Source: Flavobacteriales bacterium
GTDB taxonomy: Bacteria > Bacteroidota > Bacteroidia > Flavobacteriales_D > Sanyastnellaceae
Assembly: GCA_028825055.1 (NCBI GenBank)
Contig: JAPKAW010000001.1
Span: 1-29,737 of the forward strand
DNA: 29,737 nucleotides
Direction: 5' to 3'
The notes beneath the pieces were generated by a model. The model was given only the letters and a program-made list of their open reading frames with translations. It made no database searches and was not told the origin of the DNA. This document shows, in pieces, positions 4,803 to 13,810 of the stretch (positions are counted from its first letter, which is position 1; each line of letters begins with the position of its first letter). The translations under genes were made by a program, and so were the position numbers.

Positions 4803-5801
4803 ATGATTATAAAGATCGGTTGTTTTTTTGTGATGCTTGTGGGGATGGTATGTGCAGATGAAGCTGTTGCGCAGAATATCATCCCGGATCCGGGATTTGA
4901 AGCGGTCGAAGGTCCGTTTTGCGGCATCATGGGGCCCAATGATTTTAGCAATACCTTATTTAATTGGGCGAGCCCGACCTATGGCACTCCCCAAATGTTC
5001 TTTACGAATGCTGACGTGTCGTGTTACAACACGCAACCTGTCAGTACGTATTCCGGACCGATTGGAATCCGCGGCAACCAATTGCCATTGGAAGGGCAAG
5101 CGATGGCAGGATTGTATGCTTATACCATTGAAGGGTTCAATCAGCGTCATTATGTGCAAGCAGAACTGGAGGAGCCATTGGTTCCGGGGCAGGCTTATGC
5201 GGTCGGTTTTTATGTCTCGTTGGCGGATTACATTGAGTTCGCGTCTACGGGGTTGCAGGCGTTGCTCACCGCTGGGCCGGTTAATCTCAATAGTGATGAG
5301 GTTATCGATGCGCAGCCACAGGTCTCCTCGGAAGAGATGGTGGATGATGCGGTAGGGTGGACCCTCATTGTGGACACGTTAACCTTTGAAGGCCCCGTTG
5401 ATTTCATCACCATCGGAAACTTCAAGACCGATGAACAGACCCTGTTGGTACCCAACCCGACCTTTTCAGGAGCGGTCGGTACGTATGGAGCATTCTACTT
5501 CTTGGATGAGGTTTTTATTGAGGAGGTCGTCACGTCGAACCTCCAAGAAGTTGAAAATCAAAACGAGGTAAAATTCCTTTCGACATCACAAGGCCTTGAG
5601 GTCGTTTCTTCGGACTTCAAAACGGGACGCTTGCACGTGGAATTGTTTGGTCTTGATGGTCGACAAGTATTTGAGTCCTCGAGTAGGTCGTCTAGAATGC
5701 TAGTCCCTTGGACAGCGTGGTCTGGGGATTGTGCGATTGTGTCCGTGCGACTTGATTCTCATGTAACTTCTCAGGTTATCTGTCGAGGTGAATTCCGCTA
5801 A
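4803..5801 (+). CDS. Secreted protein with a beta-sandwich/carbohydrate-binding-like domain and a degenerate T9SS-like tail
   Basis: Signal peptide ending AVAQ; NIIPDPGFE...YVQAELEEPLVPGQAY..GFYVSLAD...YITIGNF-like segment...FYFLDEV pattern seen in Bacteroidota surface proteins; tail with LFGLDGRQV. Confidence 0.6.
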   Translation: MIIKIGCFFVMLVGMVCADEAVAQNIIPDPGFEAVEGPFCGIMGPNDFSNTLFNWASPTYGTPQMFFTNADVSCYNTQPVSTYSGPIGIRGNQLPLEGQAMAGLYAYTIEGFNQRHYVQAELEEPLVPGQAYAVGFYVSLADYIEFASTGLQALLTAGPVNLNSDEVIDAQPQVSSEEMVDDAVGWTLIVDTLTFEGPVDFITIGNFKTDEQTLLVPNPTFSGAVGTYGAFYFLDEVFIEEVVTSNLQEVENQNEVKFLSTSQGLEVVSSDFKTGRLHVELFGLDGRQVFESSSRSSRMLVPWTAWSGDCAIVSVRLDSHVTSQVICRGEFR

Positions 5802-5819: not shown

Positions 5820-6818
5820 ATGAAAATTTTCATTCTATTGCTTGCGAGTTCTCTGACAATGTCAGGGTGCTGCGCTCAAAATACGGTGTGCTTGACGCTG
5901 GAGGAGAATCCATATCTCGACGACCCCGCTTTGTCAGAATTTTCGAAATATGTGCAGGTGCTCGGCTGTTTTGAATTGCTCGCCGAATCGTCTATTTCGG
6001 ATGAGAAGGTGCTGCATGCTGCAGCGGTTGCTGCTGAGTTGTTGGATCAAAATGAAGATGGTGTGGTAGACGACCAAAATGTAGCCAATGCCTTGGCTTC
6101 AGGTCAAGCACTCATGCCCATTTTTGAGGAAGAAGGTTCGATTGCGGAAGAGATGCTTTTTGAAAATTATGAAGGTGATGGCATTGGTGCAGTGTTGTAC
6201 TCAGATGAGATTAACCCCAACCAGCCGGGCTACTGGGGGGAAGACGCGACGGTAGAGGAGGTGCTCCATACCATCAATTCTGTGGGGCATGTTTCCGTGT
6301 ATCCAAACGCATTTAGTCTTTCCCCAGGTTCGTCGTTGCTATCAGCAGCCATGGATGTAGCCCGGGGTGGGCAGTACCTATCGGTCCCTGACATGTACCC
6401 GAAGGAGGCTTGGTACCATTACGATGATTGGACATGTGATTACGAATGCATGGCCATTGAATACCTATACTGGGCATTGGTGACGAAGATGGGGATTCTC
6501 GACGACCCTCAAACGGCCAGTGGTATTGCCGATGAATGGGAGTTGTATTCTGCCGAATTGTTGGAGGAAACGGATGTGTTGATTGACCAGCTAATCAGCA
6601 ACGCTCAATTCATGCTGCCATTAGTGGCTCCAGATGGCAACTACTGCCCTCAGGCGGTTGGAATTAGCGATGGATTAGAGTCTACTGTGCAGATTCCACA
6701 TGTTGTGCGCGTCGTGGATCTGATGGGGCGGGATACGGAGCCAATCCCAGGAATGCTGATGATTCACATGTACAGTGACGGCCACGTCAAGAAGCAATGG
6801 GTTTGCCCTGAGTATTAA
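5820..6818 (+). CDS. Secreted acidic hypothetical protein, possible zincin-like metalloprotein (EExxH), with short T9SS-like tail
   Basis: Signal peptide with SGC; DQNEDG calcium-loop-like motif; EEVLH (E146-H150) and downstream IEY (E214); VVDLMGR...MYSDGHVKK tail. Confidence 0.6.
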   Translation: MKIFILLLASSLTMSGCCAQNTVCLTLEENPYLDDPALSEFSKYVQVLGCFELLAESSISDEKVLHAAAVAAELLDQNEDGVVDDQNVANALASGQALMPIFEEEGSIAEEMLFENYEGDGIGAVLYSDEINPNQPGYWGEDATVEEVLHTINSVGHVSVYPNAFSLSPGSSLLSAAMDVARGGQYLSVPDMYPKEAWYHYDDWTCDYECMAIEYLYWALVTKMGILDDPQTASGIADEWELYSAELLEETDVLIDQLISNAQFMLPLVAPDGNYCPQAVGISDGLESTVQIPHVVRVVDLMGRDTEPIPGMLMIHMYSDGHVKKQWVCPEY

Positions 6819-6867: not shown

Positions 6868-6914
6868 TGCTTTTAAATATTTAAAAGCAATACGTCTTAA
6901 GTTGAGACGTATTG
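6868..6914. repeat. Back-to-back palindromes (22-bp perfect palindrome, then 10-7-10 inverted repeat)
   Basis: TGCTTTTAAATATTTAAAAGCA (6868-6889) is its own reverse complement; CAATACGTCT-TAAGTTG-AGACGTATTG spans 6888-6914. Confidence 0.85.
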
Positions 6915-6938
6915 ATGCTAACGATAATAACTAACATT

Positions 6939-8576
6939 ATGAAAAGAGAAAAATTCTTTCAACTCAGCAGCATTATCGCAATAGGTGCAACAGTAGCACC
7001 TCATCTAAGTCTTAAAGCTGGCATAGGAAGATTGCAGGATGTGGACGTCGTAATTATCGGAGCCGGTCTAGCTGGACTAACTGCAGCGTATAGGCTTATT
7101 CAAATCGGTGGAATCACGGTGAAGGTTCTCGAGGCAAATTCTCGTGTTGGAGGAAGAACTCTTAACGTAGAAACGGAGAGTTGTTATCCCGCAGAACTAG
7201 GAGGCCAATGGGTTGGTCCTACGCAAACCGCTATACTCGACCTAATGGATGAATTAGGGATAGAGAGCTTTCCATCTTACTTAGAGGGAGAGTCTGTTGG
7301 TGATGAAGGGTTGAGCGATTCTGAACAAATAACCTTAGGCGGCTTTGTAGCAGAGTTAGAAGAGATGGCTTCTAGCATTGACCCTAATGCTCCTTGGACT
7401 CACCCTATGGCCATGGAATATGACGCAATGACCATAGGCGACTGGATGGATAACAACGTGGGGTTCTTCATGAATACAAACGTATACCTGATGATGTATT
7501 TCGAAATTGCTGGATGGCTAGCTGAAGCTGATAACGTTTCTCTGCTCTACTTCCTGTTTTACCTGAAAAGTGCTGGTTCATGGGAAGATCTAGCAGTATC
7601 TGCCCAATCCATGCGAGTCAACAATGGTTCTCATTCCATATCTACTGCATTAGCTGATTCTATGAGTACAGATGTGTATCTAAACTCACCTGTGTCTGAG
7701 ATCATAGAGTCTGGAAATTCTGTAACTGTAGTTTATAACGGGGGCGAAATATCATGCACTAAAGTCATTATATGTATGAATCCTAAGGACGCAGCGAACA
7801 TCAGCGTAACACCAGAGCTCCCTAGCAGTAGACTGGCGCTGCAAAATAACTGGAACCTACAAGGAGGCTTAAAGAGTAGTGTATCATTCAACACACCGTT
7901 TTGGAGAGATAACGGATTAAACGGATCTGCTTCGAATAACGATATATATATCTGCTTCGACAACTCTCCCTCCGATGCTGCATGTGGAGCGATTGTAATG
8001 TTCCCATCCGAGTCTATCACAAATTTAACGTCTCTCGAAGCCCGTGAAAACGCGACTATAGCTGCTCTTGTGGTGTTATTCGGAGAGGAAGCAAATTCCT
8101 ATGTTGACTATGTTGAACATAACTGGAGTGAAGAAGAATTCATCAGCGGATGTGTTCCAGCAATAGTGCCTGGCTTCTTCGCGAATCATGGCAGCGCCTT
8201 GAAGCAGCCCGTTGGAAACATCCATTATGCTGGTACAGAAACTTCTGATGTTTGGGCAGGTTATATGGATGGTGCCGTTCGCAGTGGAGAAAGAGTAGCT
8301 TATGAAATTCTAGATGCCCTTTCAATCCTCGATCTCACAGCTGACACTCTTCAATTATACCCCAACCCTTCTAGCGATTTCTTTAGCATATCATTGGGGT
8401 CTAGGAATCAAGCTCTAGAGGTTCACCTCTATGACATCTCTGGCAAAATCGTCTTATCAAGCTCCATTCTTACGAATTCAGCAATAAGCATAAACCACTT
8501 AGCTAGCGGAGTATACCTCGCACACGTCACATTACAAAATGGAGAAACTTTTAAGAGGCGACTCCTAAAGAGATGA
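6939..8576 (+). CDS. Flavin-dependent amine oxidase (monoamine oxidase family) fused to a T9SS type-A C-terminal domain
   Basis: GAGLAG dinucleotide motif, EANSRVGGRT, ELGGQWVGPTQ, HYAGTETSDVWAGYMDGAVRSGER; C-terminal LYPNPSSD...LYDISGK...LASGVYL...KR. Start moved from the track's 6912 to ATG 6939, which gives a signal-like N-terminus. Confidence 0.85.
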   Translation: MKREKFFQLSSIIAIGATVAPHLSLKAGIGRLQDVDVVIIGAGLAGLTAAYRLIQIGGITVKVLEANSRVGGRTLNVETESCYPAELGGQWVGPTQTAILDLMDELGIESFPSYLEGESVGDEGLSDSEQITLGGFVAELEEMASSIDPNAPWTHPMAMEYDAMTIGDWMDNNVGFFMNTNVYLMMYFEIAGWLAEADNVSLLYFLFYLKSAGSWEDLAVSAQSMRVNNGSHSISTALADSMSTDVYLNSPVSEIIESGNSVTVVYNGGEISCTKVIICMNPKDAANISVTPELPSSRLALQNNWNLQGGLKSSVSFNTPFWRDNGLNGSASNNDIYICFDNSPSDAACGAIVMFPSESITNLTSLEARENATIAALVVLFGEEANSYVDYVEHNWSEEEFISGCVPAIVPGFFANHGSALKQPVGNIHYAGTETSDVWAGYMDGAVRSGERVAYEILDALSILDLTADTLQLYPNPSSDFFSISLGSRNQALEVHLYDISGKIVLSSSILTNSAISINHLASGVYLAHVTLQNGETFKRRLLKR

Positions 8577-10451: not shown

Positions 10452-12134
10452 TTAATGCAATACAACCATACGCTGAACTCCGATTCCTCGCTCGGAGTGA
10501 ACCTGCATGAAGTAGGTGCCCATGGCCAAGTGTGATAGGTCGATCTGAGTCTGTTTGTCTACAATGTGACGAGCAAAAACGTGGCGCCCGCTGAAGTCAA
10601 ACAAGGACACATCGACACCTTCCCATTGCTCTAACAGCAAAAGTACCGTACCGCTGGTAGGGTTTGGGTAGAGTGAAAACTCCAAGGCCACTTCCTTTCC
10701 GAGTCCGACATCGGGAACGCAGATTTCGAGCGGTATAGGGTTGACCTCAATGACCGTTCCGGAGGCGAAGTCGATGTCTTCAAAAGCAGGGAAATTTGAA
10801 GGATAGCGTTCCGCTCTAAAGGTGAGATTCTGATTCAGGCTCAATTCGACACCTTGCTCCACAGGAGCGCCGCCCAATAGAGGCGTACGGTATTGCCAAG
10901 CCAACTCCGCGTCTTCTGTCAGTTCAAAAATCTCGCCGGTACGACCGCTACAAATTAGGTTATTTCCATTGCCCAAACGCTGAAAGGAACTCAAGCCACT
11001 GCTGTTCAATCCGGGCTGTGTGTAGGTCCATTCAAATGTTTCAGGTCCCCAACGGCCAGTTGTTTCGTCAAATTCGTACCCTCCTTCGTATTCGTCAAAG
11101 ATGGGGTTGATGATGGCCACTTCACTGTGCGTGCCAATACTGTCGGGTACGCGATTGTTGAAGACGAAAAACTTGACGAAATCAGGATTTCCAGGTTCCA
11201 CAGACGGGCCATTGCCCCAATGGATGTCGTGTTGGTAGAAGAGCTTTTGATCGGTGCTGTCTCCACGGTCGTAGGCAAGCGGATTGCCCCAACGCCAAAT
11301 TAAATCGTCGCTAAACGACCAATCGTGCCAGATGGTCCACACTTCATTGAAGGTGGGAATGCTCACTACAATTTGTCCGGCACTATCATAAAATGGATAG
11401 TAGTCTATGGAATTCATGTGGAGCCAATCGGCAGGTTGACTGCTGACTGATCCGAAGTTGACGTCGATTTTATTTTGATGATCAGCGATAACGCCAAAGT
11501 TCAGTTTCGTGCTGTCAAAATCCTGGACCAAATGATCCCAAGCCCGCCATTCCCAAATAACATCGGCACCACCATTTCCATTGGGTTGCAACTCAATGAG
11601 TTTGTCACTCCAAAGCACGCCCGCCTCCAGCAATTCCGGGTTTCGTCCATTTTCGATACATTCCAAGCTATCGATGGCTTCCCAACAAATCGCGATGACA
11701 TTTCCGGTTGGAGTCACGGTCATATCGTGATGAAGGCGTAGAGAATTACTGCTGGTCGTGAAGCTCCAGATTACTTCATTGTCCCACGTGCGGCGCTCGA
11801 TGGTCTCACCAGCTCCGCCAGCCCAAATGGTAGCATCTCCTGCGGAAGCAGGACGTGAGGTGATGATGATGTCCCCGTTGGGCTGCAAGTAACTGGTATT
11901 TCCTGGCCGTCTGAGGGAGTCCATTTCCCATTGATGAACGACTTCGCCACATCCATTGAGCAACATGGCTCTATGCTGGTTGTGCGGATAAATTAGCGTG
12001 TATCCATCCGTGAACAAATCGGGATTGTAGGCAATGGTGCCAACGGTGTTTTGACCGTGCACCCCTACCAATACGAGGCACATGGAAAGCAATAGAAAAG
12101 CAGGTCGTAAGGAGGTGTTTGGGCACATTATCAT
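10452..12134 (-). CDS. Arylsulfotransferase (ASST)-like beta-propeller protein with T9SS type-A C-terminal domain (paralog B)
   Basis: LHHD, DWLHMNSI, YQHDIHW, RWGNP.AY and FQRLGNGN motifs; LYPNPTSG...LAMGTYF tail. Start set at ATG 12134, which overlaps the upstream TGA (ATGA). Confidence 0.8.
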   Translation of the reverse strand: MIMCPNTSLRPAFLLLSMCLVLVGVHGQNTVGTIAYNPDLFTDGYTLIYPHNQHRAMLLNGCGEVVHQWEMDSLRRPGNTSYLQPNGDIIITSRPASAGDATIWAGGAGETIERRTWDNEVIWSFTTSSNSLRLHHDMTVTPTGNVIAICWEAIDSLECIENGRNPELLEAGVLWSDKLIELQPNGNGGADVIWEWRAWDHLVQDFDSTKLNFGVIADHQNKIDVNFGSVSSQPADWLHMNSIDYYPFYDSAGQIVVSIPTFNEVWTIWHDWSFSDDLIWRWGNPLAYDRGDSTDQKLFYQHDIHWGNGPSVEPGNPDFVKFFVFNNRVPDSIGTHSEVAIINPIFDEYEGGYEFDETTGRWGPETFEWTYTQPGLNSSGLSSFQRLGNGNNLICSGRTGEIFELTEDAELAWQYRTPLLGGAPVEQGVELSLNQNLTFRAERYPSNFPAFEDIDFASGTVIEVNPIPLEICVPDVGLGKEVALEFSLYPNPTSGTVLLLLEQWEGVDVSLFDFSGRHVFARHIVDKQTQIDLSHLAMGTYFMQVHSERGIGVQRMVVLH

Positions 12135-13810
12135 AGTTTCAAAATTACGGTACTCCCAAAGATTCCCCAAGCATCCTCCCAACGCAAAATATAACTCCCC
12201 GCAGGAAGATGTCCCCAAGCGAAAACCGTGATTCCGTGAATGGTTTCGTGCATCAATGGCCGTCCCATTGCATCGAACAGGTCAATGTCAATTGGACGGT
12301 TTGCTTGAAAATGAAATTGATCTGAAAAAGGAGTAGGGCCGAATGAAACCATGGGAGAAAGAGCGTCATTCGGCAAGTCAGTCCCTTCTGATGTGGTCGT
12401 GCAATCTGACGGGTACGGAGCCAATTCGACCGGTTCTCCGGGAGTGAGGTCTCTTCCTACCAAACCAGGGTAGTCGGGGCCGTAGCGGTAAGCTCTGAAT
12501 GTGCCGTTTTCTATGGGTTCATTGCCTTGAGTGTTGGGGCCGAATTGGCTGGTCGCGGTGATGTATTCCCAAACCTTTTCCCCTGTGGCAGTCACTTCGA
12601 ATAGCTTGCCATCGTCCCCTTCGCAAACAAGGGTGTTCCCATTGGGTAAGCGCTGTGCACCGCTGATAAATGAACTGTAAAAATCGGGATCCAATACGGC
12701 GGGGTATGTCCAGTCAAAGTCAGAAGGGCCAAAGGCCTCCTCTTCGAGTAGCAGATACGTTCCGTTATCTAACAGGGGCAATGTCAATTCATCCACTGAA
12801 CTGCGGGGTCCACCCGGACGGCTCACTCCGTTGTTGAATAGAAGCACGGTGGATGAGTTGGATTCGCTAGCCCCACCTTCTTCGTAGTGAATCCAATGGG
12901 GGTCATGTTGACCGAACAGTTGACGATCCTCTGCCTCTCCTCGACCATATGCCTCGGGGTTCCCCCAGCGGTACAACACATCACCTCCTTGCCCTGCGGC
13001 CCCTCCCGATGAGCTGGTCGCTTCGTCCGAAGTGGTGCTGTGATCGATGATGTAAAACTCATTCCAGCGTCGGCTATTCAGCATGATTTGATCCAGTGTC
13101 TCATTGTAATGGATGGCATTGCAATGGAACCAATCACCGCTGTTTTGGCTCATCGGTCCTCCACCTCCAGGGCTCTCGTAATTGATGTCGAAACGGTGGG
13201 GGAAATCAGCGGGCTCTCCATAGTTCGGTAAGTTTGGATCAACATTTTGAATGAGATGATCCCAGGCATGCCATTCCCAAACAATGTTTCCTTCACTCGT
13301 ACCGACGGGCTCAATTTCTACAATCTGAGGTGGCCAGAGGGGTGAATCTCCCACGCGACCGAGCGTCTGCGCCTCCTCATTGGAATGGAATTCCCACGCA
13401 ATCAATAGGATATTGCCATTGGGCAAAACCGCCATGTCATGATGATGGTGGGCTTCCTCCGATGCGTAATCGAAGGACCATTCGAGCACGCCATCCCAAG
13501 AAAACCTTTCCAGTCTTCCACCTATGCCTCCTCCAAAGAAGACCGAGCCGCTTAGACGTGCGGTCCGCAATAGCGAGCCATCCTCCAAGAGGTAAGAAGA
13601 TTCTCCCATCCTGTAATCACTTTCCCATTGGTTTACCACCCTTCCGCAATTGTCAATCAAATGACTTTGCGTAGCGGAGTTTGCAGACACGAGTGTGTAC
13701 CCATCAAATGATTCAGGAGTGTTCTGAATGAGTCCAATCGTGGGTGTTTGGGCCAATCCACTTGTGAGAAAGGCTCCCAATAAAAGGATCAATATGGTGA
13801 TGTTTCGCAT
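12131..13810 (-). CDS. Arylsulfotransferase (ASST)-like beta-propeller protein with T9SS type-A C-terminal domain (paralog A)
   Basis: Signal peptide; HHHHD, DWFHCNAI, NSRR, GQHDPHW and SGAQRLPNGNTLVCEG motifs; GPTPFSD...FDAMGR...LPAGSYIL tail. Confidence 0.85.
   Translation of the reverse strand: MRNITILILLLGAFLTSGLAQTPTIGLIQNTPESFDGYTLVSANSATQSHLIDNCGRVVNQWESDYRMGESSYLLEDGSLLRTARLSGSVFFGGGIGGRLERFSWDGVLEWSFDYASEEAHHHHDMAVLPNGNILLIAWEFHSNEEAQTLGRVGDSPLWPPQIVEIEPVGTSEGNIVWEWHAWDHLIQNVDPNLPNYGEPADFPHRFDINYESPGGGGPMSQNSGDWFHCNAIHYNETLDQIMLNSRRWNEFYIIDHSTTSDEATSSSGGAAGQGGDVLYRWGNPEAYGRGEAEDRQLFGQHDPHWIHYEEGGASESNSSTVLLFNNGVSRPGGPRSSVDELTLPLLDNGTYLLLEEEAFGPSDFDWTYPAVLDPDFYSSFISGAQRLPNGNTLVCEGDDGKLFEVTATGEKVWEYITATSQFGPNTQGNEPIENGTFRAYRYGPDYPGLVGRDLTPGEPVELAPYPSDCTTTSEGTDLPNDALSPMVSFGPTPFSDQFHFQANRPIDIDLFDAMGRPLMHETIHGITVFAWGHLPAGSYILRWEDAWGIFGSTVILKL

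Follow-up and report, generated by a model that had tools for sequence, protein, structure and literature searches.

A predicted secreted FAD-dependent amine oxidase with a modified twin-arginine leader and a type IX secretion tail in a member of the Flavobacteriales

The whole stretch of DNA that was analyzed, in the following called the window, has a length of 29,737 nt. On its forward strand, positions 6939 to 8576 were found to be open over 545 amino acids, as a preliminary description of this DNA had stated. The features of the gene and of the region directly upstream are the following, with the basis of each assignment in parentheses.

6888..6914, no strand assigned: hairpin with a 10-bp stem, 25 nt upstream of the ATG (terminator-like scan and direct reading)
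6939..8576, + strand: coding sequence of an MAO-like flavoprotein, 545 aa, stop codon included (open reading frame list and translation)
6939..7019, + strand: leader, residues 1-27 (sequence, aligned with the RRxFLK leaders of homologues)
6942..6962, + strand: position of the Tat-type motif, K-R-E-K-F-F-Q, residues 2-8 (family consensus x-R-R-x-F-L-K)
7044..7076, + strand: Rossmann beta-1 and GxGxxG dinucleotide-binding motif, residues 36-46 (G41, G43, and G46 invariant in 120 relatives)
7068..8312, + strand: Amino_oxidase (PF01593) catalytic domain, residues 44-458 (Pfam E 7.3e-47, profile positions 1-443 of 443)
7872..7874, + strand: K312 in GGLK, the conserved active-site Lys of the MAO family, equivalent to MAO-B K296 (invariant in 120 relatives, aligned with the Lys of putrescine oxidase and of 8p84)
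7950..7952, + strand: I338, at the position of Rhodococcus putrescine oxidase Glu324 (counted from the 2yg7 alignment)
8151..8156, + strand: C405-V406, the FAD-linking Cys position of MAO followed by Val at the first cage Tyr (TGT GTT, aligned to MAO-A C406-Y407)
8262..8264, + strand: Y442 in GYMDGA, the second aromatic-cage Tyr (invariant in 120 relatives, aligned with the Tyr of MAO-A SGYMEGA)
8313..8354, + strand: linker between catalytic domain and tail, residues 459-472 (poorly conserved, pLDDT about 62 at residues 461-470)
8355..8573, + strand: type-A T9SS C-terminal sorting domain, residues 473-545 (PF18962 and TIGR04183 above cut-offs)

Initiation at the ATG at 6939 would yield an N-terminus that resembles those of the homologues P0008 and P0024. 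Other upstream starts (TTG at 6912 and ATG at 6915) are located inside or just past the hairpin. The hairpin, which has a perfect palindrome of 22 nt (6868-6889) immediately before it, therefore bears on the choice of the start codon. Promoter and terminator scans around the gene revealed no excess over the shuffled background.

The assignment to the MAO family of flavoenzymes, which had been proposed from the letters alone, was borne out by the match to the complete PF01593 profile and by the closest relatives, which belong to the branch of MAO, putrescine oxidase (PuO), and cyclohexylamine oxidase (CHAO). The Pfam profiles NAD_binding_8, DAO, and FAD_binding_2 all match at the dinucleotide-binding motif. 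Sequence comparison with the PDB yielded 8p84 (E 4e-68), putrescine oxidase (about 1e-59), and human MAO-A/B (about 1e-55). The AF2 model has a mean pLDDT of 90.6, with mostly more than 93 per 10-residue block in the catalytic domain, and Foldseek gave a target-normalised TM score of 0.89 to both 8p84 and 2bxr. The E-values of the domains and the positions kept across more than 100 homologues are far beyond chance. The best explanation for the gene product, as judged from its sequence, is a predicted secreted FAD-dependent amine oxidase of the MAO/PuO/CHAO branch.

Residue equivalences were taken from the HMMER alignment to human MAO-A (2bxr, 2z5x). Four residues had been named in the preliminary description, and all four were recovered: the FAD-linking Cys is kept (C405 on MAO-A C406, codon TGT at 8151-8153), the next residue, V406, falls on the first cage Tyr, MAO-A Y407, and both the second cage Tyr (Y442) and the conserved Lys (K312) are present. 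Like the other two conserved residues, C405 is invariant in the 120 relatives. In place of the cage of two tyrosines (Y407/Y444 in MAO-A, Y398/Y435 in MAO-B), the protein therefore has Val406 first and Tyr442 second. The claim of an altered aromatic cage held insofar as the Cys-Val pair is real, but the alteration is not peculiar to this gene. Position 406 is V or T in all 22 members that carry a T9SS tail, and it is V in each of the 68 relatives that are not actinobacterial, the majority of which have a leader; the 30 actinobacterial relatives, which lack a leader, have Tyr. In putrescine oxidase, too, the cage deviates from the Tyr/Tyr pair, and thus the change in the cage lowers the case for an MAO proper, not that for an amine oxidase. 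The FAD is perhaps bound covalently through C405, a putative linkage suggested by the location of this Cys at the 8-alpha-S-cysteinyl position of MAO-A C406 and MAO-B C397. The FAD-binding and catalytic residues are fully kept, which argues for a working holo-enzyme.

Glu324 of putrescine oxidase has a role in diamine binding, where it holds the second amino group. At the equivalent position 338, all tailed members carry a hydrophobic or aromatic residue, and a specific role as a diamine oxidase of the putrescine oxidase type was therefore rejected. The substrate of the enzyme is probably a hydrophobic monoamine, given the hydrophobic residues at the cavity positions and the Ile in place of the diamine-binding Glu. 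Two further candidates were discarded: L-amino-acid oxidases gave far weaker and only partial matches (E about 1e-22, in two stretches), and a NicA2-type dehydrogenase was rejected as there is no neighboring cytochrome c within 4 kb.

Homologues that combine an Amino_oxidase domain with a T9SS tail were found 21 times, making 22 together with the copy in the window. These 22 proteins and two tail-less proteins form one clade (SH-aLRT 100), which is nested among relatives from other phyla. One tailed homologue is from a cultured species, Aquimarina discodermiae (WP_367589300.1), and has an RR-type leader. A tailed orthologue was present in none of 400 sampled Bacteroidota genomes. The genomic context was compared for seven metagenomic loci with tailed homologues, and no neighboring gene was shared between these loci or with the window; also, no CxxCH open reading frame was found within 4 kb of the gene or in the seven homologous loci. 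The neighborhood is not conserved, and therefore, the gene context supports no particular substrate.

The C-terminal tail turned out to be as clear as had been described. Por_Secre_tail matches residues 473-540 with an E-value of 8.6e-13 and 48.8 bits (cut-off 27), and TIGR04183 matches with 2.1e-12 and 46.8 bits (cut-off 23); the tail is intact. With 53 bits it has the top score among the 64 Por_Secre_tail matches in the genome. It is modeled as seven strands (pLDDT 83-91), and the PNP and G-x-Y motifs are kept in the alignment of the 22 homologues. The genome encodes the T9SS components SprA (1389 and 500 bits, on two contigs) and PorV (334 bits), as well as the Tat components TatC (209 bits) and TatA, the latter twice (61 and 53 bits).

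The leader carries K2-R3 in its n-region and an F6-F7 pair. Its h-region consists largely of Ala, Gly, Thr, and Ser and is terminated by Pro, and the basic residue K26 lies in the c-region, SLKA; residues 8-31 are disordered in the AF2 model (pLDDT below 50). R3 and F6 are invariant in the alignment of the 22 tailed members. Position 4 is variable, with R in 13 members, K in 6, S in 2, and E in 1, the latter being the copy in the window. None of the 131 other leaders examined has an acidic residue at this position. The consensus S/T-R-R-x-F-L-K is present in 13 of the 21 tailed homologues and in 54 of 54 scorable leaders of relatives from other phyla, where it takes the form RRxF[LI], and it is absent from the copy in the window. 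Pfam TAT_signal, a model of little power on these leaders, matched 2 of the 22 tailed members, and the protein analyzed here was not one of them.

Quantification of the hydropathy placed the leader between the two export types. Its best 10-residue value is 2.12, versus a median of 2.57 for the 51 T9SS-cargo leaders of the genome, itself included. On average, Tat-type leaders have a value of 1.7, the tailed clade 1.98, and Sec-type cargo 2.53. The leader also differs from the other 50 T9SS-cargo leaders of the genome; those are short, have a higher hydrophobicity, and in most cases terminate with AQ, SQ, or GQ. By homology, it is a modified twin-arginine leader derived from a Tat signal.

In E. 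coli, the second Arg of the Tat motif is reported as the more critical one. The usage in Bacteroidota was assessed with 108 leaders of GH109, an unrelated cofactor enzyme, from marine members of the phylum. The Arg at position -3 from the Phe is fixed by the motif anchoring in this control, and the residue that follows it is K in 56, R in 18, L in 18, and S in 9 of the 108 leaders; two adjacent basic residues that include the anchored Arg are present in 106 of them. This result suggests that the twin-arginine motif is relaxed in a manner specific to the phylum. The K-R-E of the leader resembles K-R-S, K-R-I, and K-R-N of GH109, and K2-R3 conforms to a relaxed Bacteroidota usage of one fixed Arg and an adjacent basic residue. 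The description of the leader as a degenerate twin-arginine signal was therefore right in that R-E-x-F stands for R-R-x-F in the alignment with the 21 tailed homologues, but the leader is less degenerate than it looks, since K2-R3 fits the GH109 usage, which is mostly R-K or [RK]-R-x. The same control weakened a candidate interpretation by which RK, RS, and RE would reflect a decaying Tat signal among the tailed proteins (9 of 22 versus 0 of 54), because RK is dominant in an unrelated enzyme of the same phylum.

Routing from Tat to T9SS had been put forward as a possibility. With a T9SS tail, a modified twin-arginine leader, and the genes for both machineries in the genome, it is now the best reading. 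We consider it somewhat more probable than not that FAD is loaded in the cytoplasm, that the folded enzyme leaves the cell via Tat and then T9SS, and that it acts outside as an amine oxidase that forms H2O2. The protein would fold and bind FAD in the cytoplasm, and TatABC would export it in the folded state upon recognition of a relaxed motif of the Bacteroidota style, i.e. an Arg three residues before the Phe with an adjacent basic residue (K2-R3). The leader would be cleaved after SLKA. The C-terminal beta-sandwich could then be recognized by PorV/SprA, the enzyme would cross the outer membrane still folded, and PorU would remove the tail, so that the enzyme might be released or stay bound to the cell surface. 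There, it would convert a primary amine to an aldehyde and ammonia and pass the electrons to O2, yielding H2O2. T9SS transports folded cargo (PMC9251779), and Tat-exported flavin amine oxidases (Tat-FAOs) without an adjacent cytochrome c mostly proved to be true oxidases (PMC12224317).

The main alternative is that the leader has lost its Tat competence and is now an ordinary Sec signal, in which case FAD would be gained in the periplasm or outside the cell, or else an inactive apo-protein would be secreted. The Glu in place of the second Arg is unique among the 132 leaders examined, L7 and K8 of the consensus are replaced by F and Q, so that three of the six motif positions are off consensus, the hydropathy of 2.12 is inside the range of the Sec-type cargo leaders of the genome, and every characterized T9SS cargo uses Sec. 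There is also a precedent for periplasmic FAD loading, Shewanella FccA with the exporter Bfe. Nevertheless, the invariant Arg, the Phe, the adjacent Lys, the h-region rich in Gly, Ala, and Thr, the helix-breaking Pro, and the basic c-region have all been kept, and the leader has not drifted to the Sec pattern of the genome (MK-hydrophobic-AQ). Furthermore, conservation is complete at the catalytic and FAD-binding residues, and proteins with the MAO fold fold around FAD. Taken together, we regard the loss of Tat competence as unlikely, albeit to be taken seriously.

Two other explanations concern the function rather than the export. The enzyme might be an amine dehydrogenase that, like NicA2 and Pnao, uses cytochrome c or a different electron acceptor, with the transfer taking place either in the periplasm or on the cell surface. 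Many Tat-exported members of the superfamily are cytochrome-c-dependent dehydrogenases, switches of the oxidant are frequent, and one Tat-FAO without an adjacent cytochrome reacted poorly with O2 (PMC12224317); in addition, the genome encodes at least one T9SS-tailed CxxCH protein (C163). Against this stand the lack of a CxxCH open reading frame within 4 kb here or in the seven homologous loci, the lack of any conserved neighbor, the affiliation with the MAO/PuO/CHAO branch (E about 1e-55 to 1e-68) and not with NicA2/Pnao (E about 1e-14), and the T9SS tail, which removes the enzyme from the periplasmic respiratory chain; a dehydrogenase is therefore improbable. Less probable still is a co-evolved extracellular toolkit for halogenated phenolic amines (6939-28042), formed together with nearby T9SS-tailed deiodinase-like and arylsulfotransferase-like genes. 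The window does contain two ASST-like genes (10452-12218, tailed, and 12131-13810) and several other T9SS cargos. However, the seven loci with tailed homologues share no neighbor with the window or with each other, and a convergent pentapeptide-repeat gene and a tRNA separate the genes. T9SS cargos are common in this genome, and with 64 tail matches in 2.2 Mb the presence of several cargos in one window is unremarkable.

Extension of the Tat-then-T9SS route to the whole clade is held more tentatively, at slightly less than an even chance. It would mean that a clade of amine oxidases of marine Bacteroidota is secreted folded and FAD-loaded by Tat and then T9SS, that the Tat system of Bacteroidota reads a relaxed motif with one fixed Arg and any adjacent basic residue, and that Cys-Val(Thr) marks extracellular amine oxidases of a new substrate class, maybe with covalent FAD.

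The pairing of a Tat-type leader with a T9SS tail is undescribed in reviews of type IX secretion. In reviews and in the T9GPred pipeline, T9SS cargo is defined as Sec-dependent, and one prediction pipeline even demands the absence of a Tat signal; a Tat signal is present in none of 102 experimentally shown T9SS cargos, and our literature search found no paper that links Tat to T9SS cargo. If the route operates throughout the clade, it contradicts the rule of Sec dependence. If the route is real, T9SS is not limited to cargo delivered by Sec and could place cofactor-loaded redox enzymes outside the cell, and the prediction of T9SS secretomes would change, because a Tat signal leads to the exclusion of a protein in at least one pipeline. 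A relaxed motif would affect every count of Tat substrates in Bacteroidota, since standard RR-based predictors would miss much of the Tat substrates of the phylum, including the protein described here. The enzyme offers a compact test case: it has a single subunit and a fluorescent, possibly covalent cofactor, and an RR-type orthologue exists in cultured Aquimarina. If a marine flavobacterium had an extracellular amine oxidase, dissolved organic amines would be converted to ammonia and H2O2 at its surface, which is of relevance for nitrogen scavenging and for antagonism to algae and bacteria.

Flavin monoamine oxidases from Thermoanaerobacterales (8p84, 9h5p), human MAO-A/B (2bxr, 1gos), Rhodococcus PuO (2yg3), and CHAO (4i58, 6lqc) have the same fold, with target-normalised Foldseek TM scores of 0.79-0.89 and E-values of 1e-53 to 4e-68, and they share with the protein the FAD motifs, the second cage Tyr, the conserved Lys, and a Cys where MAO is flavinylated. 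The identity to this set is 29-34%, and the protein differs by Val at the first cage Tyr and Ile at the PuO Glu. In contrast to the protein with its export leader and T9SS tail, these enzymes, which reside in the cytoplasm or are attached to the outer membrane of mitochondria, have neither.

With regard to secretion, a similar two-step route is used by PlcH/PlcN of Pseudomonas aeruginosa, which are exported as folded enzymes by Tat and then T2SS. PlcH/PlcN belong to another phylum and depend on a conformational T2SS signal, whereas the protein analyzed here has a C-terminal T9SS domain. Type-A CTD cargos such as the gingipains of P. gingivalis and enzymes of F. johnsoniae (TIGR04183) have the same seven-strand tail, which scores above the curated cut-offs here, and SprA and PorV are encoded in the genome. 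However, described T9SS cargos have Sec signal peptides, whereas the family presented here has a Tat-type leader and a passenger that bears a cofactor.

Tat-exported FAOs such as NicA2 and Pnao (Akram et al. 2025, PMC12224317) likewise have an FAD enzyme of the Amino_oxidase fold behind a twin-arginine-type leader, and the absence of an adjacent cytochrome c matches the class of "periplasm-localised oxidases" in that study. NicA2-type FAOs belong to another branch (E about 1e-14) and stop in the periplasm, whereas the protein has a tail for secretion across the outer membrane and a modified twin-arginine. Marine L-amino-acid oxidases, e.g. of Aquimarina sp. antisso-27 and Pl-LAAO of Pseudoalteromonas luteoviolacea, are extracellular flavin oxidases with antibacterial or algicidal action via H2O2 (PMC6316408). 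They act on L-amino acids, whereas the protein matches amine oxidases far better (E about 1e-60 versus 1e-22).

The reading frame at 6939-8576 is open and encodes 545 residues (ORF list and translation), with the following features:

6939-8576, plus strand: tailed amine oxidase gene
Residues 44-458: complete Amino_oxidase domain (Pfam, E 7.3e-47)
Residues 473-540: Por_Secre_tail domain (Pfam, 48.8 bits; cut-off 27)

TIGR04183, the NCBIfam model for type-A T9SS sorting domains, also matched the tail. The nearest solved protein by sequence was 8p84, a Thermoanaerobacterales monoamine oxidase (E 4e-68), followed by Rhodococcus putrescine oxidase (E about 1e-59), human MAO-A and MAO-B (E about 1e-55) and cyclohexylamine oxidases (E about 1e-53); the matches to L-amino-acid oxidases and NicA2/Pnao were far weaker than these. 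An AlphaFold2 model built from an alignment of 120 relatives had a mean pLDDT of 90.6, with disordered leader residues 8-31, a short linker of low confidence and a tail forming a seven-strand domain. Foldseek gave target-normalised TM scores of 0.79-0.89 for the catalytic part against 8p84, MAO-A/B, putrescine oxidase and cyclohexylamine oxidase. Within the flavin amine oxidase superfamily the enzyme looks ordinary; its branch is so far uncharacterised. The MAO-like domain, the tail and the active-site residues named in the preliminary description of the gene were all found.

In the HMMER alignment of residues 370-464 to human MAO-A, C405 (codon TGT, 8151-8153) fell on MAO-A C406, the FAD-linking Cys, V406 on the cage residue Y407, and Y442 on its MAO-A counterpart, the second cage Tyr; K312 matched the active-site Lys of the MAO family in the alignment to solved relatives. 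C405, K312 and Y442 were invariant in the 120 relatives. All 22 tailed proteins had V or T at position 406 and 68 other relatives had V, and Tyr at this position was limited to 30 relatives that formed a separate, leaderless actinobacterial clade in the tree. The altered cage noticed earlier is thus real, but not particular to this gene: it marks a large non-actinobacterial, mostly leader-bearing branch. In putrescine oxidase, Glu324 contacts the far amino group of the bound diamine; at its position the query has Ile338, and every tailed member has a hydrophobic or aromatic residue, which argues against a diamine as substrate.

The unusual feature of the protein is its export architecture. The database search yielded 21 clusters of the same architecture with 38-52% identity, all with both the Amino_oxidase and the Por_Secre_tail domain; some derive from surface water sampled by Tara Oceans, and one from the cultured Aquimarina discodermiae. 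The Tat-type leader and the T9SS tail are conserved across this rare marine Bacteroidota clade, which comprises 21 clusters besides the query; a sample of 400 Bacteroidota genomes contained no tailed orthologue. The N-termini of the homologues aligned with the query without gaps, which bears out the earlier reading of R-E-x-F instead of R-R-x-F. In the tailed proteins, R3 and F6 were invariant, and positions 7 and 8 were mostly L/I and K/R. At position 4, 13 of them have R, 6 have K and 2 have S, and the query is the only one with E. R-R-x-F occurred in all 54 other-phylum relatives with a scorable leader; Planctomycetota, Actinomycetota, Myxococcota and Pseudomonadota were among the matches listed in the genome scan. 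In a maximum likelihood tree of the catalytic domain (quick search, LG+G4), the 22 tailed and two tail-less proteins formed a single clade (SH-aLRT 100) inside the RR-leader group. This nesting and the uniform R-R-x-F of the relatives indicate that the query leader is a Tat signal by descent. A tail-less Bacteroidota homologue (L089, G311:C9:721359-725780) has the R-K leader M-Q-R-K-E-F-L-K, and the Emticicia homologues (Bacteroidota) are without any leader.

The main rival explanation is that the query copy now uses Sec, and the Glu at the second Arg position speaks for it; an acidic residue at position 4 was found in the query alone among 132 leaders. Going by the tree, the second Arg was lost at least five separate times in the Bacteroidota clade and never outside it. 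As a control for R-R usage, an unrelated exported cofactor enzyme of the same genome was analyzed:

C120:7417-8826 (L091): GH109 / Gfo-Idh-MocA protein, leader start M-R-R-S-D-F-L-K

Its best 120 relatives (P0146-P0265), the named ones mostly from Flavobacteriales and other Bacteroidota MAGs, included 108 leaders with a recognisable motif, anchored on the Arg three residues ahead of Phe. The anchor was followed by K in 56 leaders, the commonest form, by R or L in 18 each and by S in 9, so that the textbook R-R stood at the canonical positions in only 18 of 108; apart from these and the R-K leaders, most were R-R-x-x-F or K-R-x-x-F. An adjacent basic pair including the anchor Arg was present in 106 of 108 (e.g. 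R-R-L, K-R-S, N-R-K). R-K and [RK]-R-x are thus the common leader forms in Bacteroidota, and K2-R3-E4 of the query fits the latter. As R-R is rare in the GH109 leaders of marine Bacteroidota, RR-based predictors would undercount the Tat substrates of Bacteroidota. A Fe/Mn superoxide dismutase of the same genome (L092, C208:6348-7082, minus strand) has the Tat-type K-R leader M-K-K-R-T-F-I-K followed by a lipobox Cys, and looks like an exported, lipid-anchored enzyme.

Leader hydropathy, taken as the best 10-residue window, gave the same picture as the motifs. The means, which are purely descriptive because the sequences are related to one another, were 1.98 in the MAO clade (query 2.12), about 1.7 in the GH109 and likewise the other-phylum MAO leaders, and 2.53 in the genome's other T9SS-cargo leaders, 50 in number. 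The latter are short, start with M-K and mostly end with A-Q, S-Q or G-Q, and leader inspection revealed no Tat-type leader among the genome's other T9SS cargos. The genome, a MAG of 2.19 Mb and 80% completeness, encodes TatC, two TatA-family proteins, SprA and PorV, and the query tail scored highest of its 64 Por_Secre_tail matches. Most likely, FAD would be loaded in the cytoplasm, the enzyme would be exported across the inner membrane by Tat and secreted by T9SS, and amines would be oxidized extracellularly to aldehyde, ammonia and H2O2.

The surroundings of the gene contain these features:

4803-5801 and 5820-6818: co-oriented ORF pair directly upstream, exactly 332 aa each
6868-6889: perfect 22-nt AT-rich palindrome, directly 5' of the hairpin
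6888-6914: hairpin, stem of 10 bp, 25 nt before the start codon
10452-12218 and 12131-13810, minus strand: tandem arylsulfotransferase-like (ASST) beta-propeller genes

No neighbours were shared with the window or between seven metagenomic loci with tailed homologues, and all ORFs within 4 kb of the gene, in the window as in these loci, lacked a CxxCH haem motif; the gene thus seems to stand alone. Both 332-aa ORFs have signal-like N-termini; neither matched a Pfam family, and neither occurs around the tailed homologues. The palindrome and hairpin (6868-6914) overlap alternative upstream start codons and could act as an operator or as a structural element of the 5'-UTR. Only the downstream ASST-like gene carries a T9SS tail, and its true start is probably further in, because the ORFs as listed overlap by 88 nt. 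Elsewhere in the genome, L093 (C163:657-2240, minus strand) encodes a 528-aa protein that combines a leader of the Sec type with a CxxCH haem-c motif close to its N-terminus, matches Cu2_monoox_C weakly and has a T9SS tail of 26.8 bits, just below the Pfam cut-off of 27. This protein may be secreted and use haem or copper in redox reactions.

In this superfamily, Tat-exported enzymes encoded next to a cytochrome c are dehydrogenases, and those without such a neighbour are mostly true oxidases (PMC12224317). This pattern, and a tail that takes the enzyme out of the periplasm, favour O2 as the electron acceptor. According to reviews, T9SS cargo enters the periplasm by Sec (PMC9251779; PMC7073777; PMC9127263), and T9GPred requires candidates to be without a Tat signal, since Tat signals are missing from all 102 cargos shown by experiment; a description of a Tat-exported T9SS cargo was not found in the literature searched. 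T9SS moves folded proteins, and folded sfGFP bearing a tail is secreted (PMC9251779; PMC9127263), and therefore the handover of a Tat-exported holo-enzyme to T9SS is plausible as a mechanism.
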